A DNA stretch of 64,000 nt from the NCBI GenBank assembly GCA_017547685.1, contig JAFYPD010000028.1:2009-66008 (forward strand), given 5' to 3'. The translations under genes and the position numbers were made by a program. A model generated the notes under the pieces. That model ran no database searches. It saw only the letters and a program-made list of their open reading frames with translations, and was not told the origin of the DNA. This document shows, in pieces, positions 1,613-23,579 of this stretch. Source of the stretch: Peptococcaceae bacterium (lineage in GTDB: Bacteria; Bacillota; Peptococcia; Peptococcales; Peptococcaceae). Position 1 is the first letter of the stretch. Each line of letters opens with the position of its first letter.

Positions 1613-1862
1613 TTACTGATCAGAAGCAATGCCTGTGTTCTTCTGAATCTTCTTCAGTTCCTGCTGCATATTCTTGCGCAGCTTCAAATCCAAAGCGCCC
1701 AGAGGTTCGTCCAGCAGCAGAACCTGTGGTAGTCTTGCCGCAGCCGGACGGGCCAAGCAAAGTGATGAACTCATTATCGTGAATGTCCAGGCTGATACAG
1801 TCCAACACCGTTTCATCTCCAAAAGATTTGGAGATATTGCGTAGCGCAATTATCTTTTTCAT
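1613..1862 (-). pseudogene. Collapsed ABC-transporter ATPase remnant (PotA-like)
   Basis: ATG 1862 is preceded by AAAGGAG. It encodes [45 protein letters not shown] (Walker A). Three codons later, in another frame, comes [32 protein letters not shown] (Walker B/D-loop) followed by a stop. The Q-loop, LSGGQ signature and H-loop are absent. Confidence 0.75.
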
Positions 1863-2407
1863 TCTCTTTGCTCCTTTTTTCTTTGCTGCATAAGTCAGCA
1901 CAATTCCGAAAAGAGCACAAAAAAAGTGGCATGTCACTTCCGCAGCATGCCACTCGTAAAAATCATATGATAAAGATTGTCCAATTCGAAAATCCCCCCC
2001 TCCTATATCCGCCAATGGCGTAGAAAAGAGAGAAAGGGTACAAATAGATTCAATACCCCCACCCATAATGGCAGCGATACTGTACTGGAATCAACCGGAA
2101 TCACAATTAGATCAGAGTCTATATAGCAAAGATACTTTTACTACTCTTATTGATCATTTCACAAGTTCATGCCTGAGGCACTTTCGGTTATAAAGTAACC
2201 AACTTATAAAACTGAGCTTTTAACTCAACCAATAAGGCAACAGAAGTTGCCAACTGCCTTTACGCAGTTTGCGGCTTTTGACCCGGCTGTCCGTATGGCC
2301 TTAGCCGATGAATCATCGGCGGTCAAAAATCTTGCTTCGGAAACACTGTTCCAATTGAGATCCTGTTAAGGATACAACAAATTACTGAAAAAGTCAATAG
2401 CAGACAT

Positions 2408-2446
2408 ATCGCCCGCAGGATTTCTCCCACGGGCGATGATTTTTTA
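2408..2446 (+). terminator. Stem-loop plus T-run (orphan intrinsic-terminator-like hairpin)
   Basis: atcgcccg (2408-2415) pairs with cgggcgat (2430-2437) and is followed by gattttttt. No intact + strand gene lies upstream. Confidence 0.4.
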
Positions 2447-2451
2447 GCTAT

Positions 2452-2727
2452 CTAAAGGCTTGTACGCTGCCACTTTCCTTCCTGCTTTTCCTGCACCACA
2501 TATTTCTGTGCTGCTGTCACCAGCGCCTGATAATCCTCACGCTCTACAGCCATCTTGAACGTCAGTGAAAGGGCTTTGCTTCGATCTGCTCCACAGCCTG
2601 GATAGAAACCTGTTTCTGCTGAACACGCTCAATGGTTTGCTCCAATGCGGTAAGTTTCTCTTTGCGTTTTTCTCGCTTAAATTCCAGAACATTCAAATGC
2701 TCTTTGTGTTCGCCCTTTTGCTCCCAC
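2452..2727 (-). pseudogene. Frameshifted C-terminal remnant of a Mob/Pre (MobV-type) plasmid recombination/relaxase protein
   Basis: Two minus frames read EWEQKGEHKEHLNVLEFKREKRKEKLTALEQTIERVQQKQVSIQAVEQIEAKPFH* and LTFKMAVEREDYQALVTAAQKYVVQEKQEGKWQRTSL*. A coiled coil followed by an AKP...V..EDY..L..AA motif is what I remember from the C-terminal part of Mob_Pre proteins. There is no start codon and no N-terminal relaxase domain. Confidence 0.35.
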
Positions 2728-2830
2728 TCAGTAATTGCACAGCCGCGGCATAGTAATCTCGCCGATGCCGAAGATTTCGTGTTTCACCTGCTCGCCGGAG
2801 GCCACGCATAGTATTGTTTCGCCTTGCACC
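2728..2830 (-). pseudogene. Orphan duplicate of the uxaA 3' end (last ~30 codons plus stop)
   Basis: Translates to GETILCVASGEQVKHEIFGIGEITMPRLCNY*, compared with the intact gene end GEALLQMILRVASGELVKHEIFGIGEIAMPRLCNYC* at 3965-4075. About 74/80 nt are identical over 2729-2808 vs 3969-4048 by hand alignment. An in-frame stop lies immediately upstream of the fragment. Confidence 0.8.
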
Positions 2831-2968
2831 AACTGTTAAAATGTGGTATTCTATACACAGGAACGACAAGGTACAAATCATTACATTCATCACACCCTAT
2901 ACACAGCAGGCTTTCACACAACCATAACAGCACTTCCTTAAAATATCACAATTTCAGGAGGAATGTTT

Positions 2969-3889
2969 ATGTCAGACCATGCAAACAGAACTTACAAAGA
3001 CAGCGTGTTTTCAAAGTATTTTCGGGAAAACAAAGAAGGGCTTGTGGAACTCTTTAACGCCATTGAAGGAACCAGTTATCCGCTCGACACACCAGTAGTA
3101 GTAGAGACGCTGGAGGATGTACTATACAAGGAAAAAATCAACGATTTATCCTTTCGGCTGAATGAGCAGATACTGGTGCTGATAGAACATCAGTCAACAA
3201 TTAATGAAAATATGGCATTGCGTTTACTAATGTACGTGGCAAGGCTGTATGAAAAGCTGCTGAACCAGTGGGAAAAACGAGTTATGTATGAGGAAAGGCG
3301 GATTTTAATTCCGACACCAAAATTTGTGGTACTATATAACAGCAAAGCACCTTATCCGGAACATAGTGAACAATATTTATCCCAGTCATTTCTGGTAAAA
3401 GAGGATTACCCGGCACTAGAGTTGAAGGTAGATGTATATAATATTAATTATGGAGAAAATAACAAACTGCTGCAGAAAAGTAAACATCTGAATGATTACA
3501 GTCTATTTATTCATGCAATAAATCAGGAGTATACAGCCGGTAAACCTCTGACTGATGCAATTAAAGAAGCAATATCTTATTGTATTGAGCACGATATTAT
3601 GGGAAAATTTCTGCAAAAGAACGGAAGCGAGGTGCGAAACATGCTGATTGGTGAATGGAAAACGGAAGAAGCTATGGAATATATCGAGAAAAAAGCAAAA
3701 AAAGAAGGAGAAAAACTCGGTCGTACAGAAGAACGCGAAAAACTGATTCGTGCGTTCAGTGATTTGCTGACACCGGAACAGATTGCAGAAAAACTGCAGC
3801 TACCGGTAGAATCTATACTGGCAATTCTGCAAAATGCCACTGTGGTTGCAGAGCCGGAAGTATCTTACGAAGCAAAGAAAACAGAATAA
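2969..3889 (+). CDS. Rpn-family recombination-promoting nuclease / putative transposase (PD-(D/E)XK, YhgA-like)
   Basis: N-terminus MSDHANRTYKDSVFSKYFRENKEGLVELFNAI... and LVLIEHQSTINENMALRLLMYVARLYEKLL (E-x-Q nuclease core) are typical of the family. AGGAGG at 2956-2961 favours ATG 2969 over the track start 2963. Confidence 0.8.
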   Translation: MSDHANRTYKDSVFSKYFRENKEGLVELFNAIEGTSYPLDTPVVVETLEDVLYKEKINDLSFRLNEQILVLIEHQSTINENMALRLLMYVARLYEKLLNQWEKRVMYEERRILIPTPKFVVLYNSKAPYPEHSEQYLSQSFLVKEDYPALELKVDVYNINYGENNKLLQKSKHLNDYSLFIHAINQEYTAGKPLTDAIKEAISYCIEHDIMGKFLQKNGSEVRNMLIGEWKTEEAMEYIEKKAKKEGEKLGRTEEREKLIRAFSDLLTPEQIAEKLQLPVESILAILQNATVVAEPEVSYEAKKTE

Positions 3890-3895
3890 CGCTAC

Positions 3896-3951
3896 AAAAA
3901 CAACCCTCCTCTGCCCTGTCAGACTGACAACGCAAGGAGGGTTTTGTTTTT
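3896..3951. terminator. Bidirectional intrinsic terminator between the Rpn gene (+) and uxaA (-)
   Basis: aaaaacaaccctcct ... aggagggttttgttttt, a GC-rich stem flanked by an A-run and a T-run, placed between convergent stop codons at 3889 and 3965. Confidence 0.7.
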
Positions 3952-3964
3952 ACATATAGTTTAG

Positions 3965-5143
3965 TTAACAGTAATTGCACAGCCGCGGCATGGCAATCTC
4001 GCCGATGCCGAAAATTTCGTGTTTTACCAGCTCGCCGGAGGCCACGCGCAGAATCATCTGCAGCAGAGCTTCGCCCAGTTCTGCTATGGTCTGTTCCTGC
4101 CTTAGCGACGGGCTTGTGTCAAAGTCGATAAAGTCTTCCATCCAGGATGCGGTATGTTCGTTGCCAGTCAGTTTCAGCACCGGTGCAACGGGGTTGCCGC
4201 TGGGGGTTCCCCTTCCTGTGCTGAAGATGGTCAGCTGGGCACCGCCCGCTGTCATCTCGGCCACGGAACACACATCATAAGCGCAGGTATCCATCACCAC
4301 CGTACCTTTGGTATTCACCCTGTCGCAGGACTGCAGCACAGCCTGAATGGGCCGGGTGCCTGCCTTGTGAATGCAGCCCAGTGATTTCTCTTCCAGCGTG
4401 GTAATGCCGCCTGCCTTGTTGCCCTGCGACGGGTTGCCGCTGCGGATATTCTCACCCAAATCGATAAATTTCTGCTCACAGCGGGCCACAATGTCTAAAA
4501 TCTGCTGGCCGATTTCGTCTGTTGCGGCCTGTTTTGCCAGCACCTTCTCCGCACCCACAAACTCCGGCGTTTCACTGATAATGGATGTTGCGCCCAAATC
4601 TGCCAGGCGGTCGCACACATAGCCAATCACCAGATTGGCTGATAAACCCGATGTGGGGTCAGAGCCGCCGCAGTTGGTGCCCACAATCAAATCGGATATC
4701 GGGCACGGCACCCGGCTGCACTGTGCCGCCTGAGCAATCAATTCGCCGGCCAGCCGCTTCCCTTCGGCCACGGTGCGTTTCACACCGCCGCACTGCTGAA
4801 TCTCCACCGCTTCCACCGGTTTATCGGTCTGCAGCCGAATGGCTTCTTTCACAATCTCCCACTGCAGCTGTTCACAGCCCAGGCCAACCAGCAGCACACC
4901 GTACACATTGGGATTTGCCGCCAGCCCGGCCAGCAGTTTTAAGGTCATTGCTCTATCGCCAGCCACCTGTCCGCAGCCGTTCTGGTTATGGATGCCCACT
5001 GCACCGGGCAGATTGCGGGTAATCATTTCTGCCACATCACTGGAACAGGCGCAGGTTGGAATTACCAGCACATGATTGCGCACGCCCGCGCGGCCATCGG
5101 TCCGCCGATACCCCATAAAAGTAAACGCATCCTGTTTTTCCAT
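3965..5143 (-). CDS. uxaA: UxaA-family (altronate/galactarate-type) dehydratase, large catalytic subunit
   Basis: 392-aa ORF. MGYRRTDGRAGVRNHVLVIPTCACS..., GLGCEQ and GTNCGGSDPTSGLSANL are characteristic of the UxaA C-terminal domain. Confidence 0.85.
   Translation of the reverse strand: MEKQDAFTFMGYRRTDGRAGVRNHVLVIPTCACSSDVAEMITRNLPGAVGIHNQNGCGQVAGDRAMTLKLLAGLAANPNVYGVLLVGLGCEQLQWEIVKEAIRLQTDKPVEAVEIQQCGGVKRTVAEGKRLAGELIAQAAQCSRVPCPISDLIVGTNCGGSDPTSGLSANLVIGYVCDRLADLGATSIISETPEFVGAEKVLAKQAATDEIGQQILDIVARCEQKFIDLGENIRSGNPSQGNKAGGITTLEEKSLGCIHKAGTRPIQAVLQSCDRVNTKGTVVMDTCAYDVCSVAEMTAGGAQLTIFSTGRGTPSGNPVAPVLKLTGNEHTASWMEDFIDFDTSPSLRQEQTIAELGEALLQMILRVASGELVKHEIFGIGEIAMPRLCNYC
3969..4075. repeat. 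Direct-repeat partner (functional copy) of fragment 2728-2830
   Basis: See the hand alignment with 2728-2830; same orientation, 1241 bp apart. Confidence 0.8.
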
Positions 5144-5427
5144 TACGCCTCTCCTCCTTCCGGCGGTTCACTGTCGGCATTGTGGGTATGCACCCACTGC
5201 CCGGCAGCAATATCTGCTGCGGCATAGCCCATAGGCTGCCCGTATTTATAAATTATCTCTCCCCGCTTCATGGCCCGTCTTGCGATTTTGTGATACTGCG
5301 GAATATCCTCCAGCGCTGTGATATCTTCCGTGCCCGTACTTGCCGTTTCACCGGCCTGTACTGCCTCCAGAACGGTCAGCACAGTATCGTTATCTTCTAT
5401 CCGCACAGCTTTCTTTTTTGCCGTCAT
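5143..5427 (-). CDS. SAF-domain protein, split N-terminal subunit of the UxaA-family dehydratase
   Basis: 94 aa. The pattern ...DIPQYHKIARRAMKRGEIIYKYGQPMGYAAADIAAGQWVHTHN is the SAF/UxaA N-terminal pattern. The stop overlaps the uxaA start by 1 nt. Confidence 0.75.
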   Translation of the reverse strand: MTAKKKAVRIEDNDTVLTVLEAVQAGETASTGTEDITALEDIPQYHKIARRAMKRGEIIYKYGQPMGYAAADIAAGQWVHTHNADSEPPEGGEA

Positions 5428-9847: not shown

Positions 9848-9992
9848 AAAAACAGAAGTATCTAACAAATGGGGATTGCTGCGTTTCCAGCCAATTATTT
9901 ATCGCAGCACTCTTGCCCTGTTTCTGATTATTTTATATAATAAAAGTAAACTATAACAACTGGATTCTATCACAAACAGGAGCGTGATTTTT

Positions 9993-10514
9993 ATGAATGC
10001 GGCAAAACCATTCAACCCTGTTACTCTGGAAGAATTTGAACAGATGGAAAAAACACATCATGTAAACTATGAACTGATTGACGGAGTTGTTCTGATGGCG
10101 CCCAGCCCTTCCAGAGAGCATCAGAAAATTGCCAGCAACCTGCATTTTTCTTTGCGTACACAGTTAAAGGAAACCCGCTGTGATTCCCTTTACGAAATGG
10201 ACATTAAGTTTAACGGCAATGTATATAAGCCGGATATGATGGTATTCTGCGATGAAACCGCCGAACTTCCGGAGATTATATTTGAAATTTTAAGCCCTTC
10301 CACACGCCATACTGATTTGCGTATTAAAGTTGTGAAATACGAGGAAATGGGCGTGAAAGAATACTGGATTATCGACCCCAAAGTAAAGGTTATCACCATT
10401 CACGATTTTGTAAATGATACAGCTGAAACCTATGGTATTGAGGACACTGTTGTTTCCATGGCTCAACCAGAATTATCAATTCCAGCTGCAGTGATTTTTG
10501 AAAAAGTATTATAG
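9993..10514 (+). CDS. Uma2-family (DUF820) PD-(D/E)XK endonuclease
   Basis: YELIDGVVLMAPSPSREHQKIASNL..., PDMMVFC and EILSPSTRHTDLRIKVVKYEEMGVKEYWIIDP are the family signature. AGGAG at 9978-9982 favours ATG 9993 over GTG 9984. Confidence 0.85.
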   Translation: MNAAKPFNPVTLEEFEQMEKTHHVNYELIDGVVLMAPSPSREHQKIASNLHFSLRTQLKETRCDSLYEMDIKFNGNVYKPDMMVFCDETAELPEIIFEILSPSTRHTDLRIKVVKYEEMGVKEYWIIDPKVKVITIHDFVNDTAETYGIEDTVVSMAQPELSIPAAVIFEKVL

Positions 10515-10522
10515 AAACCCGA

Positions 10523-10553
10523 AAAGCGCTTATCCTGCATCGATAAGCGCTTT
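10523..10553. terminator. Hairpin between convergent genes (bidirectional terminator)
   Basis: 12-bp perfect stem aaagcgcttatc / gataagcgcttt with a 7-nt loop, placed between stops 10514 (+) and 10561 (-). Confidence 0.65.
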
Positions 10554-10560
10554 CTCTTTG

Positions 10561-11190
10561 CTATTTTCGTTTCGTCCGTTTGTTATTACGCACATAGCCC
10601 AGCTCACGGGTATATTTGTACCAGCTGCTGCGGGCACTGCCTGTAATATCGCAAGCCTCCTGGGCATCAATTTCGCCGGCTGCCCAGCGCTGCGCTGTGG
10701 CATGAAACAGCTCCCAGTCCATCTGTAACGGCGGACGGCCGGATTTTTTGCCCTCCTGCACAGCAGAACCAGAGCTGATACGCTGCTGCTCCTCCTCGCG
10801 GCGCTGCTGTAACTTACTCATATACAACAGCAGATTCAGCATCTGCTGTTCCATCTGCACACCAGCCTCACCCATGGCCTTATACATGCGGCTATCCAGC
10901 TGCACCGCTTCCTGCAGTACCACCACATCCACCTGCAGCTGCTTTGTTAACAGCTGCCACTCCGCAGCCATATCCTCCAGGGTGTAACCAAGACTGTCCA
11001 GCTCATCAACAAACAGCACGTCGCCTGCACGCAGCATATTGCGCAGAAACAGATAATTGCGCCGGTCAAAACTTCTGGTGCGAATATCGCCAAACAAAAA
11101 TCTGTCATCCTCCACCTGTTCCAGCATACGCTGCCGCATCGGGCTCTGCCCCTGTTCTTCTTCCCATTCTCTGATATAGCCGAACTTCAT
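10561..11190 (-). CDS. Serine-recombinase (resolvase/invertase)-like protein with degenerate catalytic site plus C-terminal HTH
   Basis: MKFGYIREWEEEQ aligns to the canonical M..GY.RVST..Q but has no Ser at the nucleophile position. GDVLFVDELDSLG replaces GD.L.V..LDRLGR. The C-terminus GEIDAQEACDITGSARSSWYKYTRELGY looks like an HTH. Confidence 0.6.
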   Translation of the reverse strand: MKFGYIREWEEEQGQSPMRQRMLEQVEDDRFLFGDIRTRSFDRRNYLFLRNMLRAGDVLFVDELDSLGYTLEDMAAEWQLLTKQLQVDVVVLQEAVQLDSRMYKAMGEAGVQMEQQMLNLLLYMSKLQQRREEEQQRISSGSAVQEGKKSGRPPLQMDWELFHATAQRWAAGEIDAQEACDITGSARSSWYKYTRELGYVRNNKRTKRK

Positions 11191-11215
11191 TGTGTTTCAC
11201 CTCATATTATATGCT

Positions 11216-12484
11216 TTATATGTTTCCTTTCAACGCTGCTTTAATATTGCTCTTATATGCCTCCACACCCGGCTGATCAAAGGGATTTACCCCTGTTAAA
11301 TAACAGCTTACCGCACAGGCTTTCTCAAAAAAATACACCATATACCCGAATGATCTGGCACTCAGCTCACTTACCGTTAAGCGGATATTGGGCGTGCCAT
11401 TTTCCAGATGGGCTTTTCGGGCACTTTCCTCCACAATCTGGTTCAGTTCATGCATGGTTCCGGCTTTTCCGGCATATGCGCTGCCTTCCAGCGACACATC
11501 CCGGCGGATTTTCCCGATGGTCAGCACTGTTTCAAAAAACATCTGCCGCCCGTCCTGCAAAAACTGCCCCATGGAGTGCAAATCCGTAGACATCTGCAGT
11601 GACATCGGGATAACCCCTTTGCCCGCTTTACACTCGCTCTCACCGAAAAGCTGCTTCAGCCACTCGGTAAAATAGCGCAGCCTGCCCTCATATACTTCAA
11701 AAATTTCAATGACCTTACCCTGCTGCTGCAGCAGATACCGCAGCAGCCCATACTGATAACAGATATTTTCCGTTAAATCAGCATTGTTACAGGCTCTACA
11801 TGCTACTGCAGCACCCTCCAGCATCGATACGATATCGATACCAGCCACTGCGATTGGCAATAACCCCACCGGTGTTAACACCGAATACCGCCCGCCGATG
11901 TCATCGGGCACCACAAAGGTTTTGTAGCCCTGTTCATCTGCTTCTGCGCGCAATGTACCTTTCGACGCATCGGTGATGGCATAGATCCGTTTTGCCGCCT
12001 CTTTCAGGCCGTATCGCTCCCGCACATAGCCGCGCAGCAACTCAAAGGCGATAGAAGGCTCCAGCGTTGTGCCCGATTTGGAGATAACACAAAGGCAGAC
12101 TTCCTCATCATTGAGCCGTTCCAGCAGTTCCGTATAATAAATAGCACTCAAATGATGCCCCGCAAAATAAATGCGGGGGCGCTGCATTTTTTCTGCATTA
12201 TGCTCGTTGTAAAACGGCGACTGCAAAAGCTCGATACATGCCTTTGCACCTAAATAAGACCCGCCAATACCGATTACCACCAGAGCCGTACACTTCTGCC
12301 GGATTTCCTCTGCAGTATCCAGAATCTCCTGTATCAGTGCCGGCTCCACACGCAGAGGCCAGTCCACCCAGCCCGTGTAAGCATCCTGTTTTTTATTCAG
12401 TTTATTATGAATTTCGTTGAGTTTTGGTTGATACCGTGACCAGGCCAGCGAATCAGACTGTGCCCAGTAATCCAGTTTTAACAT
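11216..12484 (-). CDS. pgi: Glucose-6-phosphate isomerase
   Basis: 422 aa. GIGGSYLGAKA, ISKSGTTLEP, GGRYSVLTPVGLLP and the C-terminal FDQPGVEAYK are PGI signatures. Confidence 0.9.
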   Translation of the reverse strand: MLKLDYWAQSDSLAWSRYQPKLNEIHNKLNKKQDAYTGWVDWPLRVEPALIQEILDTAEEIRQKCTALVVIGIGGSYLGAKACIELLQSPFYNEHNAEKMQRPRIYFAGHHLSAIYYTELLERLNDEEVCLCVISKSGTTLEPSIAFELLRGYVRERYGLKEAAKRIYAITDASKGTLRAEADEQGYKTFVVPDDIGGRYSVLTPVGLLPIAVAGIDIVSMLEGAAVACRACNNADLTENICYQYGLLRYLLQQQGKVIEIFEVYEGRLRYFTEWLKQLFGESECKAGKGVIPMSLQMSTDLHSMGQFLQDGRQMFFETVLTIGKIRRDVSLEGSAYAGKAGTMHELNQIVEESARKAHLENGTPNIRLTVSELSARSFGYMVYFFEKACAVSCYLTGVNPFDQPGVEAYKSNIKAALKGNI

Positions 12485-12513
12485 AATCTTTTCACTTCAC
12501 TTTTTTTACATAT
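12371..12513. repeat. Direct-repeat partner (functional pgi 5' end plus ~30 bp upstream) of 13053-13194
   Basis: About 100/114 nt identical over the coding part by hand alignment. Similarity continues past the start codon into the RBS/leader. Confidence 0.8.
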
Positions 12514-12564
12514 TGTTTCCCCATACCTCGACGTAAGCGCCCAAAAGGTTACAGAAAGCCCTGC

Positions 12565-12927
12565 TTGCTATTAGAACCACCGACGCAATGCCGGTGCGCA
12601 ATATGCTGTATGATGCACTGCAATATGAAAATCAATTGCAGGAAATCACGGCAAAACATCGAATTAAAAAAGAAAGTGATCAACACCTGTACCAATGCCG
12701 GACTAACATTACAATCAGATGACAAGGAGGATATCAATATGTGTAAAGCAATCGACGAAATGCGGGAAGACAGCCGTAACGAAGGCCGCAATGAAGGCCG
12801 TAAGGAAGGCATCGAAATCGGTCGTAAAGAAATGGCTGCCGCATTGTTAAAAGAAAAAATATTTGCCAATGATAAAATTGCTGAACTGACCAAACTCTCC
12901 ATCGAGGAAATTCAACAGCTGCAGTAG
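12565..12927 (+). pseudogene. Truncated, internally deleted and frameshifted Rpn-family nuclease/transposase gene
   Basis: One frame reads TTDAMPVRNMLYDALQYENQLQEITAKHRIKKE...*, the core region of a second Rpn subfamily. Another frame reads MCKAIDEMREDSRNEGRNEGRKEGIEIGRKEMAAALLKEKIFANDKIAELTKLSIEEIQQLQ*, the typical C-terminus. The N-terminal ~80 aa and the middle section are missing. Confidence 0.65.
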
Positions 12928-12983
12928 CAGCAACTGGCTCAGGCATAGCATCAGCTATACTACACGATACAACATTTCACACA

Positions 12984-13010
12984 GAGTGGCGTATACAGCC
13001 GCTCTTTTTT
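12984..13010 (+). terminator. Intrinsic terminator of the Rpn remnant
   Basis: gagtggc-gtataca-gccgctc (one G-U pair) followed by tttttt. Confidence 0.55.
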
Positions 13011-13049
13011 CATGTAATTTCATCGAACCTTCCAACGTGATGATCCATT

Positions 13050-13166
13050 TCAGCCCGTGTAGGCATCCTCTTTTGTATTCAGTTTATTATGAACTTCGTT
13101 GCGTTTTGGTTGATACCGTAACCAGGCCAATAAATCAGACTGTACCCAGCAATCCAGTTTCCTCAT
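13050..13166 (-). pseudogene. Orphan duplicate of the pgi 5' end (start codon plus 38 codons, then stop)
   Basis: Encodes MRKLDCWVQSDLLAWLRYQPKRNEVHNKLNTKEDAYTG*, compared with the intact MLKLDYWAQSDSLAWSRYQPKLNEIHNKLNKKQDAYTGWVDW... Confidence 0.8.
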
Positions 13167-13246
13167 GATTATTTCACTTTTCTTTTTTATCATTACACTT
13201 CTGCCCGCTGTCATTCTGAGCGAGCGAAGCGAAGTTGAAGAATCTC

Positions 13247-14128
13247 TTACCCTCTGTACGTTTTCACAATGCCTTCCAGATAATCCAGAAAGTCATCCCG
13301 TAAATTATCCCGCTGCAGTGCAAATTCCACTGTTGCCTCTAAAAAGCCAAGCTTGTCGCCCACATCATGGCGGCGGCCTTTAAAGGCATATGCCAGCATT
13401 TTTTCCTTTAATGCCAGTGTTTTCAATGCATCCGTCAGCTGAATTTCATTTCCGGCACCCGGCGCTGTTTTTTCCAGAATATCAAACACAGCCGGTGTAA
13501 TAATATAGCGGCCCATAATTGCCACATTGCTCGGCGCTACATCCGGTTTTGGCTTTTCCACCAGAGAACGAACCGTATACAGCCCATCACTGATTTTATC
13601 CCCGTCTACAATCCCATATTTGGAGATATCCTCCCGGGCAACCTCTTTTACACCCAGAATACTGCACTGTTCCCGCTCGTACAAATCCATCATCTGCTTT
13701 AAACATGGATAGCCAGGGCTGTCTACAATATCATCCCCCAGCATGACCGCAAAGGGTTCATTACCGATAAAATTTTTCGCACAGTACACCGCATGGCCTA
13801 ACCCCAGCGCTGTTTTCTGGCGCACAAACTGAATATTTGCCATACCCGCAATATCCTGAATCTGCTCCAGCATATCATATTTGCCCTTCTTCTCCAGTTC
13901 CATTTCCAGTTCTACCGAACGGTCAAAATGATCCTCTATAACCGATTTGTACCGGCCAATAATAATTAAAATATCCTCAATGCCGCTTTCCACAGCCTCC
14001 TCCACAATATACTGGATGGTAGGCTTGTCCACCACCGGCAGCATCTCCTTGGGCTGCGATTTGGTCGCCGGTAAAAACCGTGTACCGAAACCAGCGGCCG
14101 GGATAATCGCTTTTGTTATTTTTTGCAT
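13247..14128 (-). CDS. galU: UTP--glucose-1-phosphate uridylyltransferase
   Basis: KAIIPAAGFGTRFLPATKSQPKEMLPVVDKPTIQYIVEEA and VEKP motifs. Confidence 0.9.
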   Translation of the reverse strand: MQKITKAIIPAAGFGTRFLPATKSQPKEMLPVVDKPTIQYIVEEAVESGIEDILIIIGRYKSVIEDHFDRSVELEMELEKKGKYDMLEQIQDIAGMANIQFVRQKTALGLGHAVYCAKNFIGNEPFAVMLGDDIVDSPGYPCLKQMMDLYEREQCSILGVKEVAREDISKYGIVDGDKISDGLYTVRSLVEKPKPDVAPSNVAIMGRYIITPAVFDILEKTAPGAGNEIQLTDALKTLALKEKMLAYAFKGRRHDVGDKLGFLEATVEFALQRDNLRDDFLDYLEGIVKTYRG

Positions 14129-16656: not shown

Positions 16657-17619
16657 TTAACCATTTGCAAGTTTCAGAAAAATTAAAAAAACATATTTTT
16701 CTTTCAGTTCAAGTTTATTTTTACAAACCAAAACATCCGCATTTTCTAAAATTTTATAAATTTCTCTTGCATATTGCTTTTTATTACTAAATTTCGCTTC
16801 ACATAAATCCACAAGTAAAAATCTAGTAATCCAGCTCAAATATTCAGCTCCATACAACTTTAAAAAACCTTTTTCCTGCCAATAGTCTGTAATAATGCGA
16901 ACCATTCCAATATGAAGTTTGAATTTTTGCTCAAAATCCCGTCCTACGGTCTCCATCAAAGACCCTTCGCGATACCAGCGATAGTTATAAAGCTTATCTG
17001 CAATGAACGCAATACTGCCTGCCTGAGGGAACAGACATAACTGAAAAATCAGATCCTCACCAAAACGAATAGACTCATCAAATAAAATATCTGTTTTTTC
17101 TAAAAAAGACCTCTTAATGCAATTTCTCCAAACAAATGGTGTTGCACCTTGGTGCTTAAATAATGCATCTGGCTCAAACTGTTTATAAAATTTTGTTTTT
17201 GGAGACAATACTTTTCTCAACCAGTCATTTGGATACGGAATGGTAGGGAAAATATGACTTCCAAACACAATAATATCTGCATTATTCTCCAATCGTTCAA
17301 TATATACTCGTTCACAGGCATTAACACTCAAATAATCGTCAGAATCTAAAAATATGAGATACTCGCCTGTGGCTTGCTTTATACCAGCATTCCGTGCAGA
17401 TGATAACCCACCATTTTCTTTATTAACCAGACAAATTCTATTGTCAATTTTCATGTAATCTTCAATAATAGAAACGGAATTGTCTTTTGTTCCATCGTTT
17501 ACACAGATGATTTCAATATCCATTAAAGTTTGATTGAGGACACTCTCAAGACAACGACCAAGATAATTTTCAACATTATACACCGGAATGATTATCGATA
17601 TTTTAGGATTCTTATTCAT
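16657..17619 (-). CDS. Family-2 glycosyltransferase
   Basis: ISIIIPVYNVENYLGRCLESVLNQT, CVNDGTKD and LDSDD (DxD) motifs. ATGA overlap with the upstream gene. Confidence 0.85.
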   Translation of the reverse strand: MNKNPKISIIIPVYNVENYLGRCLESVLNQTLMDIEIICVNDGTKDNSVSIIEDYMKIDNRICLVNKENGGLSSARNAGIKQATGEYLIFLDSDDYLSVNACERVYIERLENNADIIVFGSHIFPTIPYPNDWLRKVLSPKTKFYKQFEPDALFKHQGATPFVWRNCIKRSFLEKTDILFDESIRFGEDLIFQLCLFPQAGSIAFIADKLYNYRWYREGSLMETVGRDFEQKFKLHIGMVRIITDYWQEKGFLKLYGAEYLSWITRFLLVDLCEAKFSNKKQYAREIYKILENADVLVCKNKLELKEKYVFLIFLKLANG

Positions 17620-18791
17620 CGTCTCACCTTCCGCATCACTTTCTGATAAACACGTTTCAATGTATAAAACATTCCATGTTCTTTATAGCAGCGGTAGCCA
17701 CCATAAAGTTTTCTTGGAACATAAGTAATTTTTCGCACTACTTTATAAACAGGAGATTTTTGTTCTACCAGCTGTACAGTTTTATTATGGCCTGAACCAA
17801 TCATGTTATTGGTATGATAAATAACGGGATCTTCAATTAATTTCTGTAAATCTTTCCACTTATACCATTCAAAATATTCTTTATCCAGCGTTCCATTTTC
17901 CATATCAGACTTAAATTCTCCGCTAGCTCGCTCAATAAAGATGTATTTAAACTTCAATCCTAATCGGTCGTAATTCCACATATAAGTGTCATATTTTATT
18001 CTATTTTTTAAACATTCTAATTTTGCTTTTAACTGCGGGCGTTCATTTAAAAACCGATCCATTTCTTCATACTCATCACAAACACAGAACACTTTTCCTT
18101 TAGAATTTACCGAGGAATTTTCATTATCCTGACGATAGTGTAAAAACGCATCCTGCACTAATTGTATTCTTTCTGCACATGCCCAAACTTTAAAATTAAA
18201 ACCGGCATCCTGATAGGATGCACCAGGTGTTTCGTTAAATTTAATATCGTTGTTTTCTAAAAAATCTTTTCGATAAATTGCAGACCAGATTGTTGGTTTA
18301 ATATTAAAAAACTCCACCATTTCCATTTTAGATTTAAAATCATTTCTAGGACAAATTGTTCGATTGCTAATGACTTTAGACACAATTTCCACTTTTTCGT
18401 TTTTTTCATTCGGAATCGAATAATACAAATAATATCCGGATTTAACAACATCTAAATTATGTTGTTTCGCACGTTCATATAATGTCTCAAACATATTTAA
18501 TTCGGCATAATCATCAGATTCCACAATACCTACATATTCACCAGTTGCCATGGCAAAACCACAGTTCATAGAATGGCCGTAACCGCTGTTCTCTTTGTCA
18601 ATAATTTTTACACGACTATCTTTTGCCGCATATTCCTGCATAATTGCCAGCGAACTATCTTTAGAACCATCATTTACGCAGATAATTTCAATTTCTTTCA
18701 ATGTCTGGTTTACAACACTGTCCAGACACTGTCTTAAATATTTTTCAACATTATAAATTGGAATTACAATTGATACTTTTGGCTGCAACAT
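17616..18791 (-). CDS. Family-2 glycosyltransferase with extended C-terminal domain (paralogue of 21446..22525)
   Basis: VSIVIPIYNVEKYLRQCLDSVVNQT, CVNDGSKD and VESDD motifs. The C-terminal region YQDAGFNFKVWACAERIQLVQDAFLHYRQDNENSSV is shared with the 21446 gene. Confidence 0.85.
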   Translation of the reverse strand: MLQPKVSIVIPIYNVEKYLRQCLDSVVNQTLKEIEIICVNDGSKDSSLAIMQEYAAKDSRVKIIDKENSGYGHSMNCGFAMATGEYVGIVESDDYAELNMFETLYERAKQHNLDVVKSGYYLYYSIPNEKNEKVEIVSKVISNRTICPRNDFKSKMEMVEFFNIKPTIWSAIYRKDFLENNDIKFNETPGASYQDAGFNFKVWACAERIQLVQDAFLHYRQDNENSSVNSKGKVFCVCDEYEEMDRFLNERPQLKAKLECLKNRIKYDTYMWNYDRLGLKFKYIFIERASGEFKSDMENGTLDKEYFEWYKWKDLQKLIEDPVIYHTNNMIGSGHNKTVQLVEQKSPVYKVVRKITYVPRKLYGGYRCYKEHGMFYTLKRVYQKVMRKVRR

Positions 18792-18808
18792 AAAAATTCC
18801 CTCCCGAT

Positions 18809-19912
18809 TTATGCATCAAACTCTTCTCTTACAGCCTCTAGTGCTGCTATGATGGTTTTATCCATATCATAGTATTTATATCCGCCCAGTCTTCCGCCAA
18901 AGATTATCTGGTTCTGTTCTTTCGCCAGTTCCTGATACTGCTGATACAAGCTATTATTTCGCTCATCATTAATTGGATAATACGGTTCATCACCCTGTTT
19001 CCATTCTGACGGATATTCACGGGAAATCACTGTTTTCGACTGTTTCCCAAATTCAAAATGCTTGTGTTCAATAATTCTGGTATATGGCACTTCACGTTCC
19101 GTATAATTGACAACAGCATTCCCCTGATAGTTTTCCTCGTTTAATACCTCTGTTTCAAAGCGAACCGAACGGTACTGTAATACACCTAACTGGTAATCAA
19201 AAAATTCGTCAATCATACCGGTAAATACCGTTTTTGCTGCAATTTCAGGATTATCTTTAATAAAATCAAAATAATCAGTAGAGAGTTTTACATCAATACC
19301 ATTCAGCATTTTTTCAATAATTGCTGTATAGCCACCAATTGGAATGCCTTGATACCGATCATTAAAATAATTGTTATCATACGTAAAACGTACTGGTAAA
19401 CGCTTAATAATAAACGATGGCAGTTCTTTACAATTTCTGCCCCATTGTTTTTCTGTATAGCCTTTTACCAGTTTCTGATAAATGTCTGTTCCAACCAGAG
19501 AAAGCGCCTGTTCTTCTAAATTCTGCGGTTCTGTTATATTGAGTTCAGCAATCTGATCAGCAATTTTCATTTTAGCTTCCTGCGGTGTACGAATCCCCCA
19601 CATTTTACTAAAAGTATTCATATTAAATGGCATATTGTACAGTTCATCTTTATAAACAGCAATTGGAGAATTCACATAGTGATTAAACTCTGCAAACTGA
19701 TTCACATAGTCCCAAACTGCTTTGTCACTGGTATGAAAAATATGAGCCCCATATCTATGCACATTAATGTCTTCAATATTTTCCGTATAAATATTTCCAC
19801 CAACATGATTACGACGATCAATTACAAGACATTTCTTGCCCCGTTTATTTGCTTCGTAAGCAAATACCGCTCCATATAAACCTGCACCAACTATCAAATA
19901 ATCATAATGCAT
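18809..19912 (-). CDS. glf: UDP-galactopyranose mutase
   Basis: MHYDYLIVGAGLYGAVFA (FAD fold), GGNIYT, HRYGAHIFHT, GIPIGGYT and GRLGGYKYYDMD motifs. ATG 19912 is preferred over GTG 19921. Confidence 0.9.
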   Translation of the reverse strand: MHYDYLIVGAGLYGAVFAYEANKRGKKCLVIDRRNHVGGNIYTENIEDINVHRYGAHIFHTSDKAVWDYVNQFAEFNHYVNSPIAVYKDELYNMPFNMNTFSKMWGIRTPQEAKMKIADQIAELNITEPQNLEEQALSLVGTDIYQKLVKGYTEKQWGRNCKELPSFIIKRLPVRFTYDNNYFNDRYQGIPIGGYTAIIEKMLNGIDVKLSTDYFDFIKDNPEIAAKTVFTGMIDEFFDYQLGVLQYRSVRFETEVLNEENYQGNAVVNYTEREVPYTRIIEHKHFEFGKQSKTVISREYPSEWKQGDEPYYPINDERNNSLYQQYQELAKEQNQIIFGGRLGGYKYYDMDKTIIAALEAVREEFDA

Positions 19913-19923
19913 TATTATCACCT

Positions 19924-20652
19924 TTACTTTTTCATATATTTCTCATACATATCACACATCGTTTTTGTATCGCCAATACCACGCATCTCGCCTTTTTCCA
20001 GCCATACCACCTGGGTACACATTTCCCGAATCTGTGCCATGGAATGGGATACCAGAATGGTGGTAGTCCCGCCGCTCATCATTTCTCGCATTCGGTTTTC
20101 ACTTTTTTTACGAAACCTGATGTCACCCACAGACAATACTTCATCTAACACCAGAATGTCCGGGTTCACTCTGCTGGCTAACGAAAAGGCCAGTTTGCTT
20201 TTCATCCCGCTGGATAATTTTTTAAACGCTGCATCTTCAAACTCTCTCAGTTCGGAAAACTCAATGATATTCTCATATTCATTATCTACAAATTCTCTGG
20301 TATAGCCTAATAATGCCCCTCGCAGATACACGTTCTCTTTTACCGTTAAATCACCATCAAACCCGGCACCCAGTTCCAGCAAAGCCGCAACGGAACCATT
20401 AGCAGTAATGCTGCCTTTGGTTGGTGGCATAATACCGGCCAACACTTTTAAAATGGTGGACTTTCCGGAACCGTTGGAACCAATAATGCCCAGCAGTGTT
20501 CCCTTTTCCACATGAAAACTCACATCGCGCAACGCCCAGAATTCTTTTACCATCATCTGGCCTTTTGCTTTTTTTATCAAATATTCTTTTATGCCAATAT
20601 CCTTAAAGTCGCCCATAATGTAGCGCACGGATACGTTATTTACATCTATCAT
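19924..20652 (-). CDS. Polysaccharide/teichoic-acid export ABC transporter ATP-binding protein (TagH/Wzt type)
   Basis: GIIGSNGSGKST (Walker A), LSSGMKSKLAF (signature) and ILVLDEVLSVGD (Walker B). Confidence 0.85.
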   Translation of the reverse strand: MIDVNNVSVRYIMGDFKDIGIKEYLIKKAKGQMMVKEFWALRDVSFHVEKGTLLGIIGSNGSGKSTILKVLAGIMPPTKGSITANGSVAALLELGAGFDGDLTVKENVYLRGALLGYTREFVDNEYENIIEFSELREFEDAAFKKLSSGMKSKLAFSLASRVNPDILVLDEVLSVGDIRFRKKSENRMREMMSGGTTTILVSHSMAQIREMCTQVVWLEKGEMRGIGDTKTMCDMYEKYMKK

Positions 20653-20663
20653 TGTTTTATCTC

Positions 20664-21434
20664 CTATACATAATACAGGAATTTGTAATTGTATTTTTTG
20701 TACATCCAGCAGCCAATACCAAACAGCAGCAGAGATACTGCCAGCATAACACCGTGAAATTCTATGGAAGGAATCACACCATCAATCACCACACTGCGAA
20801 AATAAGTCACATAGTAGTACAAAGGATTCAGATAAAAAATCCACTGCTTATCACCTAAAATGTCAGTAGTATAAAAAATCGGGGTGGCATACATCAATGC
20901 TGTACTGAATACACCGTATAAATACTGCACATCCCGAAAGAACACAAATAATGCCGATAAAATCAGCCCGATACCTAAAATCAGTAGAAACATACATGCT
21001 ATTGGATATAACAGTGTAATGAATTTCCAGGTAATCGGCAGCCCGTAAGCCACAATAAACACAGCATAAATCACCAAGGTTAAAAAGAAATTAATACTGC
21101 TGGATGCCACTCGGGAAAACAGAAACATATACTTCGGCACTTTCACCTTTGAAAAAATGCTGGCATTGGCCATTAACGAGTTCATGGCTCCATTGGTGGC
21201 ATCGTTATAGTATTGAAAAATCAGCCATCCGGAAAACAGATAAATGGTGTAATACTCCTGCGTACGGCCAAAAAATGTGCCAAATACAAAATTTAATACC
21301 AGTAAGGTAAATAACGGTGCCAGCATACTCCAAAGCACACCTAAAAAACTGCGCTTGTATTTCTTTTTAAAATCTCGTTTTACCAGTTCGGTAAACACAA
21401 ATTTGTGTCGTTTATATAAATTGATTAAATTCAA
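20664..21434 (-). CDS. ABC-2 type polysaccharide export permease (TagG/Wzm type)
   Basis: 256 aa. The N-terminus LVKRDFKKKYKRSFLGVLWSMLAPL is the ABC-2 signature. About 6 hydrophobic segments. It sits adjacent to the ATPase gene. Confidence 0.8.
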   Translation of the reverse strand: MNLINLYKRHKFVFTELVKRDFKKKYKRSFLGVLWSMLAPLFTLLVLNFVFGTFFGRTQEYYTIYLFSGWLIFQYYNDATNGAMNSLMANASIFSKVKVPKYMFLFSRVASSSINFFLTLVIYAVFIVAYGLPITWKFITLLYPIACMFLLILGIGLILSALFVFFRDVQYLYGVFSTALMYATPIFYTTDILGDKQWIFYLNPLYYYVTYFRSVVIDGVIPSIEFHGVMLAVSLLLFGIGCWMYKKYNYKFLYYV

Positions 21435-21445
21435 GTTTTTGTCAC

Positions 21446-22525
21446 TTACTTTCTAAGTAATCTTTTTATCACTGCCTGTACCATACAGGTTAATCCAGCG
21501 ATTCTGCCGATTAATAAAGCACGATACACTTTGTTCGGCAGTTTCTGACGAAACGGTAGAATCACCTGTTCCCGCTTCCAGAACTGCTGCGGCTGTTCTA
21601 AAATCATTTGGAGCATACGCGCATCCGTTTTTGAAAACTCCGCCATCTGCATCTGGCCGCTGTGCTGCAACTGGTTAAAATCCTGCTGCATCTGAATCAG
21701 GAAATCTTCACACAACTCCGGTTTCAGCCGCACATAATTCCATAAGTAGGTATGGAACATCGCCTCATTTCTTATTTTATGTAATACGCTGTATGCTTTT
21801 TTCTGGTTTAAAAAAGAATTAATTGCCTGATATTCCTTCCGGATAAAGGATGCCTTTCCAGCAGAATGCACCGAGGAGTTCTCATTGTCCTGCCGGTAAT
21901 ACAGCAACGCATCCGGTAACAATACTACCCGTTCAGCAGCAGCAAATACTTTAAATGTGAACGAAGTATCCTGATAAGCCGCTCCCGGTGTTTCCAGAAA
22001 AGAAATCTGGTTATCCATTAAAAATGTCCGTTTATATATACCAGACCAAATACTTGGCTGAATACGGAATAATCTCTGATATGCCCATGGATGAATTACC
22101 TGATTGTACGGGAGATTTTTTAATACCGGTTCTGCTTTTGTTTTTTCTTTTGGTTTCGACCAGTAACGATAGAAATTGCTTTTCACAATCTGTGCCTGAT
22201 AATGTACAGCTGTCTGATACAGTTTTTCATACAAATCCGGGGCCGCAAAATCATCGGATTCCACAACACCGATATATTCCCCCTGTGCCATTTGCAAACC
22301 GGTATTCATTGCTTTCCCATAACCGCCGTTTTCTTTATGAACCACGTGAACACGCTGATCCTTTGCAGCGTAATGATCTAAAATTCTACCAGAACTGTCT
22401 GTTGAACCATCATCTATGCAAATAATCTCAATATCCCGCAGAGTCTGTGCAAGAATGCTGTCCAGACATTTCGGCAGATATTTCTCCACATTATAAACCG
22501 GTACCAGAACACTTACTTTGCACAT
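21446..22525 (-). CDS. Family-2 glycosyltransferase (paralogue of 17616..18791)
   Basis: MCKVSVLVPVYNVEKYLPKCLDSILAQT, CIDDGSTD and VESDD motifs. AAGGGGA plus ATG 22525 immediately follows the upstream stop, so the start is trimmed from the track value 22558. Confidence 0.85.
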   Translation of the reverse strand: MCKVSVLVPVYNVEKYLPKCLDSILAQTLRDIEIICIDDGSTDSSGRILDHYAAKDQRVHVVHKENGGYGKAMNTGLQMAQGEYIGVVESDDFAAPDLYEKLYQTAVHYQAQIVKSNFYRYWSKPKEKTKAEPVLKNLPYNQVIHPWAYQRLFRIQPSIWSGIYKRTFLMDNQISFLETPGAAYQDTSFTFKVFAAAERVVLLPDALLYYRQDNENSSVHSAGKASFIRKEYQAINSFLNQKKAYSVLHKIRNEAMFHTYLWNYVRLKPELCEDFLIQMQQDFNQLQHSGQMQMAEFSKTDARMLQMILEQPQQFWKREQVILPFRQKLPNKVYRALLIGRIAGLTCMVQAVIKRLLRK

Positions 22526-23321: not shown

Positions 23322-23357
23322 AGTGTCCAAAAAGGTATACTTTTCTGCACACTATTT
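23322..23357. promoter_or_regulatory. Palindromic box copy 1 (candidate operator)
   Basis: agtgtccaaaaaggtatacttttctgcacactattt. 33/36 identical to copy 2. Imperfect dyad centred on GTATAC. Confidence 0.5.
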
Positions 23358-23394
23358 TTTTCCAGCAAATTTCACAGCTAACTCACTATATCTA

Positions 23395-23447: not shown

Positions 23448-23483
23448 AGTGTCCAAAAAGGTATACTTTTTCGGACACTATTT
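23448..23483. promoter_or_regulatory. Palindromic box copy 2 (candidate operator or 5' stem-loop)
   Basis: agtgtccaaaaaggtatactttttcggacactattt. The half-sites match 14/16 as an inverted repeat. It lies just downstream of a candidate extended -10 (tgatagaat, minus strand, ~23493-23501). Confidence 0.5.
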
Positions 23484-23579
23484 ATTGTATATTCTATCAT
23501 AGATTTCTACAAATGAAAACAACAAATATCCCCCGTTTCAAAGGGATTTTCATTTATTTCTATCACTGTTTTTATTCTG

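Follow-up and report, generated by a model that had tools for sequence, protein, structure and literature searches.

Genes of the Rpn family (PF04754/TIGR01784) are found in dozens of phyla, vary in copy number among strains and are thought to move singly. Two experimental papers report no transposon hallmarks for them (PMC5350276, Kingston 2017; PMC10400941, Zhong 2023); rpn genes are described as lacking target duplications, tandem duplication is reported to build rpn arrays (both PMC10400941), and RpnA-stimulated recombination has been proposed to proceed by a polymerase template switch (PMC5350276). Here we describe a window of 64,000 nucleotides (nt) from Peptococcaceae bacterium (GCA_017547685.1, contig JAFYPD010000028.1, positions 2,009-66,008 of the forward strand), in which a solitary, intact rpn gene stands between two direct copies of the 3′ end of its neighbour, the large-subunit gene uxaA. 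With a probability of roughly 0.55, the uxaA repeat arose as a side product when recombination put the rpn cassette in place, namely by an insertion-duplication with one illegitimate joint.

The window locus resembles the Rpn loci of E. coli in the gene family, the D...E-x-Q core, the foreign composition of a single-gene unit, unit ends that vary by locus, the occurrence of tandem arrays, and the lack of inverted terminal repeats and of a short target duplication. It differs in that direct repeats of host sequence, 41-294 nt long, bracket the solitary rpn here and at ~14% of 103 surveyed loci, whereas E. coli rpnC has none. Already known are the Rpn family, its movement as single genes and the absence of classical transposon ends; new are the long host-derived direct repeats at about 1/7 of the solitary rpn genes of this subfamily and the microhomology joint, which together offer a modest clue to rpn mobility.

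Campbell-type insertion-duplication produces the same order of host fragment, insert and host fragment, with a repeat as long as the homology carried, a host gene left intact if the fragment holds its end, and one novel joint where the circle closed. In contrast to that process, rpn cassettes are not known to pass through a circular intermediate or to use a vector, no same-locus donor was found among 15 related loci, and the homology used would be short, ~85-140 nt. Integrative elements such as e14 or phage 21 in icd, SXT in the 5′ end of prfC and tRNA-targeting islands rebuild the end of their target gene, and they share with this locus an intact end on one side and a diverged orphan on the other, at either the 3′ or the 5′ end; the rpn cassettes differ from them in having no integrase, a single gene in 1.15 kb, variable targets and repeat lengths, and a microhomology boundary. 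Homology-facilitated illegitimate recombination in naturally transformable bacteria combines a joint at 3-10 nt of microhomology with nearby homology, as is seen here. That process usually deletes recipient DNA as it inserts the new sequence, whereas a duplication is present at this locus.

The uxaA locus contains the following features; L105, L106 and L107 are the loci carrying the closest related cassettes.

2446-2727, minus strand: truncated, frameshifted remnant of a family of ~110-124-amino-acid open reading frames (ORFs) of mobilisable elements, abutting the orphan uxaA copy.
2729-2814, minus strand, core 2729-2807: orphan copy of the uxaA 3′ end, with codons for ...VASGEQVKHEIFGIGEITMPRLCNY and without the last 4 nt of the gene.
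2803-2807, no strand: CACGC microhomology, 5 nt, at the joint where the 5′ end of the cassette adjoins the orphan uxaA copy; homology to the L105-L107 cassettes begins at 2803 and uxaA identity stops at 2807.
2808-2968, plus strand: cassette 5′ region, a conserved block with a promoter-like TGtTAAAAT (2834-2842, extended -10-like), leader and ribosome-binding site.
2969-3889, plus strand: intact Rpn-family (YhgA-like PD-(D/E)XK) gene, 306 amino acids; alternative start at 2963 (308 amino acids).
3896-3951, plus strand: predicted rpn terminator, made up of a hairpin (-26.5 kcal/mol, z -5.4) and a T-run after it; L105-L107 also keep the hairpin.
3952-3964, no strand: short AT-rich spacer that separates the uxaA stop codon from the terminator, weakly similar to the L105/L106 cassette tail; either cassette tail or native sequence downstream of uxaA.
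3965-5143, minus strand: intact uxaA large subunit, 392 amino acids, ending in NYC-stop (PF04295 and PF20629); the second repeat copy is 3969-4054.
5143-5427, minus strand: SAF-domain small subunit of altronate/galactarate dehydratase.

In a blastn comparison of 1 kb against 1 kb, positions 2729-2807 and 3969-4047 form a direct repeat with 74 of 79 nt identical (E 6.5e-31). Taken without gaps, the repeat comprises 86 nt at 91% identity with a spacing of 1240 (family D7) and extends to 2814 and 4054; there is no third copy within the window. An earlier, sequence-only reading of this DNA had the last ~30 codons plus the stop of uxaA occurring twice in the same orientation, with an orphan spanning 2728-2830. 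The same-orientation duplication stands, at a smaller size. Only 79-86 nt, i.e. 26-28 codons, are duplicated; the final 4 nt of the gene (T TAA) lie outside the duplication, and the stop of the orphan, which reads NY-stop, arises at the junction. The orphan proper covers 2729 to 2807 or 2814, and the remainder, from 2808 or 2815 to 2830, is not uxaA sequence but belongs to the rpn cassette as its 5′ end, with homology to L105-L107.

The protein encoded between the copies matches PF04754 with 27.7 bits (E 2.5e-6; cut-off 21) and is full length relative to 120 listed homologues, all but a few of which carry PF04754 and several of which are named Rpn family by NCBI. Residues D59, E73 and Q75 form a D...E-x-Q core of the RpnA D63/E82/Q84 type; an alignment of 26 sequences shows no variation at them, and the window protein has all three. 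The curated cut-off of TIGR01784 is not reached (30 bits against 52.1). Judged by Pfam and motif, the protein is a predicted Rpn/YhgA-like nuclease of a divergent subfamily. The gene has a G+C content of ~0.38, against ~0.57 in uxaA. The upstream block with TGtTAAAAT is invariant across four related cassettes at different loci; a simple consensus scanner for promoters and terminators called neither the promoter-like element nor the hairpin. The description of a single intact Rpn-family gene with its promoter region and terminator between the copies is borne out by the PF04754 match, the conserved upstream block and the hairpin.

Comparison with the closest cassettes delimits the inserted unit. 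L105-L107 encode P0002, which shares 84% amino acid identity with the window Rpn, and lie in a different context; their similarity to the window is confined to 2803-3947 (83.5% identity). The cassettes of L105 and L106 are 99.3% identical over 1209 nt and their flanks differ. Because near-identical cassettes occur in different flanks and the similarity to the window is bounded in this way, the rpn cassette is a discrete, recently mobile unit. Neither L105 nor L106 displays a target duplication, flanking repeat or terminal inverted repeats, and no terminal inverted repeats were found for the window cassette; ordinary cassette insertion leaves no repeat, in agreement with PMC10400941. A target duplication of the transposase type can therefore be excluded for the uxaA repeat, as the repeats are long and variable (41-294 nt), terminal inverted repeats are lacking and the sister cassettes are repeat-free; the sequence-only reading had likewise dismissed a simple transposon duplication. 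An imperfect inverted match of 15 nt (2825-2839 against 3965-3979) is taken as chance. The L105 cassette neighbours a DUF1846 gene, and the sole contig found through DUF1846 stops short of the cassette.

The inner boundary of the orphan is informative about how the cassette was joined to the host. The pentanucleotide CACGC occurs both in uxaA (CCACGCG) and in the upstream region of the cassette (ACACGCACG), and the joint at 2803-2807 leaves the cassette shorter than those of L105-L107 by 30 nt or more of sequence that they keep. On the other side, the uxaA stop codon follows 13-21 nt past the cassette terminator. By these alignments, at least one joint between cassette and host is evidently illegitimate and made at microhomology.

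The outer boundary of the orphan, 2728|2729, is fused to the truncated foreign ORF. The conceptual translation of 2446-2727 is 81% identical to residues 25-115 of P0123, with ~24 N-terminal codons gone, and its homologue P0130 adjoins a MobA_MobL relaxase, a primase and defence genes. Identification of the ORF as the C-terminus of a Mob/Pre relaxase was considered and rejected: it received no support from Pfam, NCBIfam or plasmid tblastn, and a Mob_Pre label or type is attached to only 2 of the 120 listed matches. Further out, an ldcC/SpF59 RNA motif (2271-2325, minus strand; Rfam RF02440, 64 bits) has downstream of it an ABC ATPase ORF (1620-1862, minus strand) that is truncated just past the Walker A region, and the stretch from the M28 peptidase gene to the orphan uxaA copy resembles a patchwork of remnants.

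The arrangement of uxaA and rpn is present in 13 of 13 same-species contigs at 98.6-100% identity; as these come from independent samples and assemblers, the structure is real and fixed and not an assembly artefact. In two same-species contigs the rpn gene is interrupted within the ORF (L017 7900-8054 and L022 6346-6500, corresponding to about position 3508 of the window) by sequence that starts an ORF MSHYKHLTPKEREKIL, which we take to be the N-terminus of an IS30-family transposase; rpn would be inactivated in those strains. Exact-protein look-ups retrieved only strains with both the uxaA and the pgi insertion, the latter being described below, and no empty allele within the species. Empty sites are found in relatives. 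We compared 5 uxaA loci and 10 pgi loci from Peptococcaceae and other genomes: a single uxaA end is present in 5/5 and a single pgi start in 10/10, and none of the flanks contains rpn (0/5 and 0/10); the uxaA loci are thus empty sites of the kind that the sequence-only reading had proposed to look for. UxaA ends in NYC-stop in three of the relatives (L001, L002, L005) and in NFC-stop in another (L003), so that four of the five resemble the intact copy. The two copies in the window differ at 5 sites in 79 nt, ~3 of them synonymous, which is too few for outgroup polarisation; at a site with Leu or Gln, the Gln of the orphan is also present in the functional UxaA of L002.

These comparisons bear on another alternative, that the fragment has nothing to do with rpn and either descends from a former uxaA paralogue or is similar by chance. 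Nothing speaks for it except the existence of the fragment, and it is hardly credible in view of the blastn E-value of the repeat. The end of the fragment coincides with the cassette boundary, a second case exists at pgi, the relatives have a single uxaA and no fragment, and repeats are enriched around rpn in other genomes; on these grounds we regard paralogy and coincidence as excluded. A tandem paralogue, which had been named as fatal to a link with rpn, was found at none of the 5 related uxaA loci.

The second case lies between pgi and galU:

11216-12484, minus strand: intact pgi gene.
12369-12506, minus strand: repeat copy forming the functional pgi 5′ end, 138 nt, consisting of 38 codons and 22 nt upstream.
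12507-13050, plus strand: decayed rpn cassette, 544 nt, with a 62-codon C-terminal ORF at 12739-12927 and a terminator-like hairpin at ~12983-13011.
13051-13188, minus strand: orphan copy of the pgi 5′ end at the ancestral pgi position, beside galU (13247-14128).

The two pgi copies (12369-12506 and 13051-13188) share ~85% identity over 138 nt, and two further contigs have the pgi arrangement as well. The 62-codon ORF matches positions 219-273 of TIGR01784 with E 6.6e-6 at 26.1 bits, below the curated cut-off, and the insert has a weak tblastn match to the Rpn of the uxaA locus. That the same architecture recurs at pgi, as had been proposed, is correct as far as a repeat around rpn is concerned; the duplicated end is the 5′ end, however, and only a remnant of rpn is left. 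In the relative L127, pgi directly follows galU, and the orphan therefore sits at the ancestral position while the functional pgi has been displaced by the insert. This galU-side position of the orphan is the layout that insertion-duplication predicts. Within the window, the identity of the repeat appears to track the state of rpn, being 91-94% at uxaA with its intact gene and ~85% at pgi with its remnant. Over 16 nt the left end of the pgi insert (12503-12518) resembles the tail of the uxaA cassette (3947-3962), which is taken as chance (E 0.59).

The copies at both loci also bear on the explanation put forward in the sequence-only reading, homology-facilitated illegitimate recombination with a diverged donor that carried rpn behind its own uxaA. 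Homology within uxaA would account for one crossover, and the other end would have been joined illegitimately at a point 86 nt into the recipient uxaA; the intact 3′ end would be donor DNA, the orphan the original end of the recipient, and their divergence that between donor and recipient. The illegitimate part of this proposal is supported by the joint at CACGC, and some states of the copies are also seen in functional relatives: the orphan uxaA Gln is known from a functional UxaA, and at pgi, where this applies to both copies, among the 14 coding differences between the pgi copies the outgroup majority is matched by the orphan at ~5 and by the intact copy at ~7, although the N-terminus is poorly conserved. 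The same differences are mostly non-synonymous, unlike the prediction for two functional alleles, and repeats elsewhere reach 98-100% identity. Overexpression of RpnA increases RecA-independent recombination of incoming DNA (PMC5350276), but the recombinants in that study were replacements and not additions. No candidate donor was found, the 5 related uxaA and 10 related pgi loci (0/15) being without rpn, and the closest cassette, at 84% amino acid identity, has a different context. A diverged donor is not required by the data, and we consider it possible but doubtful.

To place the two loci in a wider sample we carried out two independent surveys, one of 80 rpn-homologue loci in species-representative genomes and one of 80 such loci on metagenome contigs. 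A search of the species-representative genomes for close relatives of the window Rpn protein returned no match, and an alignment-based scan was then used. A locus was counted as positive if rpn had one copy of a direct repeat on either side, the repeat being no shorter than 40 nt and no less than 80% identical, with flanks of at least 300 nt each; size-matched intervals shifted inside the same loci served as controls (n=158). Repeats were found at 16 of the 103 rpn loci, or 14 after removal of two tandem rpn arrays (L226, L234), which we rejected as positives as their repeat is rpn itself. Three of the 158 controls were positive, one of them an rpn array (Fisher p 4e-4 for 14/103 against 3/158). 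An earlier, looser control gave a similar result, and inverted matches around rpn are rare. The enrichment agrees with the expectation that rpn genes would be flanked by duplicated neighbouring ends, although not systematically so, ~86% of the loci being without a repeat.

The repeats are locus-specific, 41-294 nt long and 83-100% identical, and enclose 1.0-1.46 kb with a single rpn; targets and repeat lengths vary from locus to locus. In L030 (DUF401), L064 and L033 the repeated sequence comes from a gene convergent with rpn, either from its 3′ end or from its terminator region. In L054, L062 and L096 (an MFS transporter) it belongs to the downstream gene, as the promoter with the first codons or as sequence immediately preceding that gene, and in further loci it is plain intergenic sequence. 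The neighbours of repeat-positive rpn are housekeeping genes, e.g. proS, accA, IMP dehydrogenase and pgi. In L213, rpn stands between two 98.5% identical 3′ ends of group II introns (domain V/VI, RF00029; 642-771 and 2201-2329), the right-hand one preceded by a truncated intron reverse-transcriptase ORF, and we reject this repeat as a target duplication. Where one copy is continuous with a host gene or transfer RNA (tRNA), that copy lies downstream of rpn in seven cases (uxaA of the window, L030, L033, L054, L055, L062 and L096) and upstream in two (pgi of the window and L091), a possible orientation bias in small numbers.

The tandem arrays themselves (L234 1-3349, L226 1600-5127) contain two to four rpn paralogues in units of ~1.2 kb, like the arrays in PMC10400941. 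Since adjacent copies are just 78-89% identical, these arrays are old or were built from different paralogues. They raise the question of whether the window structure could derive from a tandem duplication of the rpn cassette with the uxaA end, followed by loss of one cassette copy. Such arrays occur in the survey and in PMC10400941, extra rpn fragments lie close to L048 and L240, and deletion of a first cassette could have left its scar in the clipped outer end of the uxaA orphan. The pgi orphan, on the other hand, runs straight into the ancestral galU side, which would call for precise removal of a second cassette; no trace of rpn is found beyond the uxaA orphan, and most repeat-positive loci have no second rpn fragment. 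This history seems to us quite improbable.

The survey also contains a case that resembles the work of an integrase. In L091, a solitary rpn lies between tRNA-Met (2756-2835) and a perfect copy of its 3′ half (4206-4257), 52 nt that run from the anticodon stem to the 3′ end plus 6 nt and are 100% identical, a classical integrase footprint; no integrase is visible there, on a contig that ends 350 nt beyond. The uxaA repeat might accordingly be read as attachment (att) repeats, in which an element targeted the uxaA 3′ end with a replacement gene end and the rpn cassette is the remnant, cis-mobilisable, between attL and attR. The mobile-element ORF remnant abutting the orphan would fit, as would the rebuilt gene end, which is typical of such elements (e14 in icd, SXT in prfC). 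No integrase or recombinase gene is found, however, near the uxaA or pgi locus in the window or the same-species contigs, nor an integrase among the best 25 of 68 neighbour families at repeat-positive loci. The mobile-element remnant lies outside the repeat pair, no third copy exists, and on its cassette side the orphan is bounded by an illegitimate joint at microhomology that falls inside cassette sequence; for these reasons an att origin of the uxaA repeat is unlikely, the tRNA case L091 apart. Target and repeat length moreover differ at every locus, and the related uxaA and pgi loci are empty.

We therefore return to insertion-duplication. A single-gene rpn cassette of ~1.15 kb, with its own promoter, ORF and terminator, would have been placed right behind the uxaA stop codon, and its insertion would have left it between two copies of the last ~85-110 nt of uxaA; because uxaA retained a complete 3′ end, the event would have come without cost to the host. 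A Campbell-type circle would be the most economical route: the cassette and an adjoining piece of uxaA would close into a circle at CACGC and integrate by a single crossover in that piece. The locus displays host direct repeats around an insert, one copy continuous with the gene, and a novel joint at CACGC, 2803-2807. Alternatively, a polymerase template switch with overlapping joints could give the same product. The surplus uxaA copy, non-functional, would have drifted since (~6-9% divergence), and a later rearrangement may have clipped it and fused it to the truncated mobile-element ORF. The pgi locus would represent an older event of the same kind, with the pgi 5′ end duplicated and rpn decayed to a remnant. 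No part of this explanation requires Rpn to act as a transposase. We prefer the circle or template-switch routes to the diverged-donor route because sister cassettes insert repeat-free, so that repeats look secondary or occasional, because repeat identities run continuously up to 100%, because the 15 relatives include no donor-type locus, and because repeat decay parallels rpn decay in the window. Identities from 100% down to 83% fit near-identical copies that decay afterwards, and the clear repeats, mostly at least 40 nt long, would be consistent with a homology-dependent step.

Several observations weigh against this explanation. Most rpn loci lack a flanking repeat, including rpnC of E. coli K-12, and the positives are heterogeneous, comprising the intron ends of L213, the integrase-like tRNA half of L091, and at least two loci, L048 and L240, with other rpn fragments nearby. 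No species provides a pair of empty and occupied alleles, and the pre-insertion site is deduced only from relatives with 84-88% protein identity; among the 15 related loci, none was found that could have been a donor by having the cassette, free of repeats, at uxaA or pgi. Outgroup polarisation of the differences between copies gave no decision. Finally, the orphan lacks T TAA and the native downstream sequence and is fused to a foreign ORF, for which a second event must be assumed.

Long locus-specific duplications and a microhomology joint constitute a concrete, testable footprint of rpn insertion, which allows insertion-duplication or template switching to be tested and would explain how cassettes land harmlessly on the ends of essential or conserved genes (uxaA, pgi, tRNA). 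For annotation, short orphan gene-end fragments beside rpn would be insertion scars and not paralogue pseudogenes. Rpn cassettes might even mobilise themselves with no transposase, Rpn nicking the target and a template switch or a circle of cassette plus flank copying the cassette in, to give duplications of ~40-300 nt that preserve gene ends. This is rather unlikely; if true, it would be an undescribed mode of insertion and would explain the single-gene spread of a very widespread defence gene.

From the NFACT-family gene to pgi (~9900-11200), the content varies among strains (loci L013-L018): the interval holds a Uma2 nuclease gene and a 209-amino-acid ORF in the window and some strains, or an AAA_14/DUF4143 ATPase gene in others. 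Between 14100 and 16650 the G+C content falls to 0.26-0.33, against ~0.5, across an 812-amino-acid ORF that has Fer4/FrhB and polysaccharide pyruvyl-transferase domains in same-species contigs. The ORF adjoins glycosyltransferase paralogues (repeat family D1, 17456-22522), probably as part of a horizontally acquired glycan cluster. Further along, a 39-nt direct repeat (23322-23360 and 23448-23486, 90% identical, 126-nt spacing) lies in intergenic sequence upstream of a 1055-amino-acid ORF.

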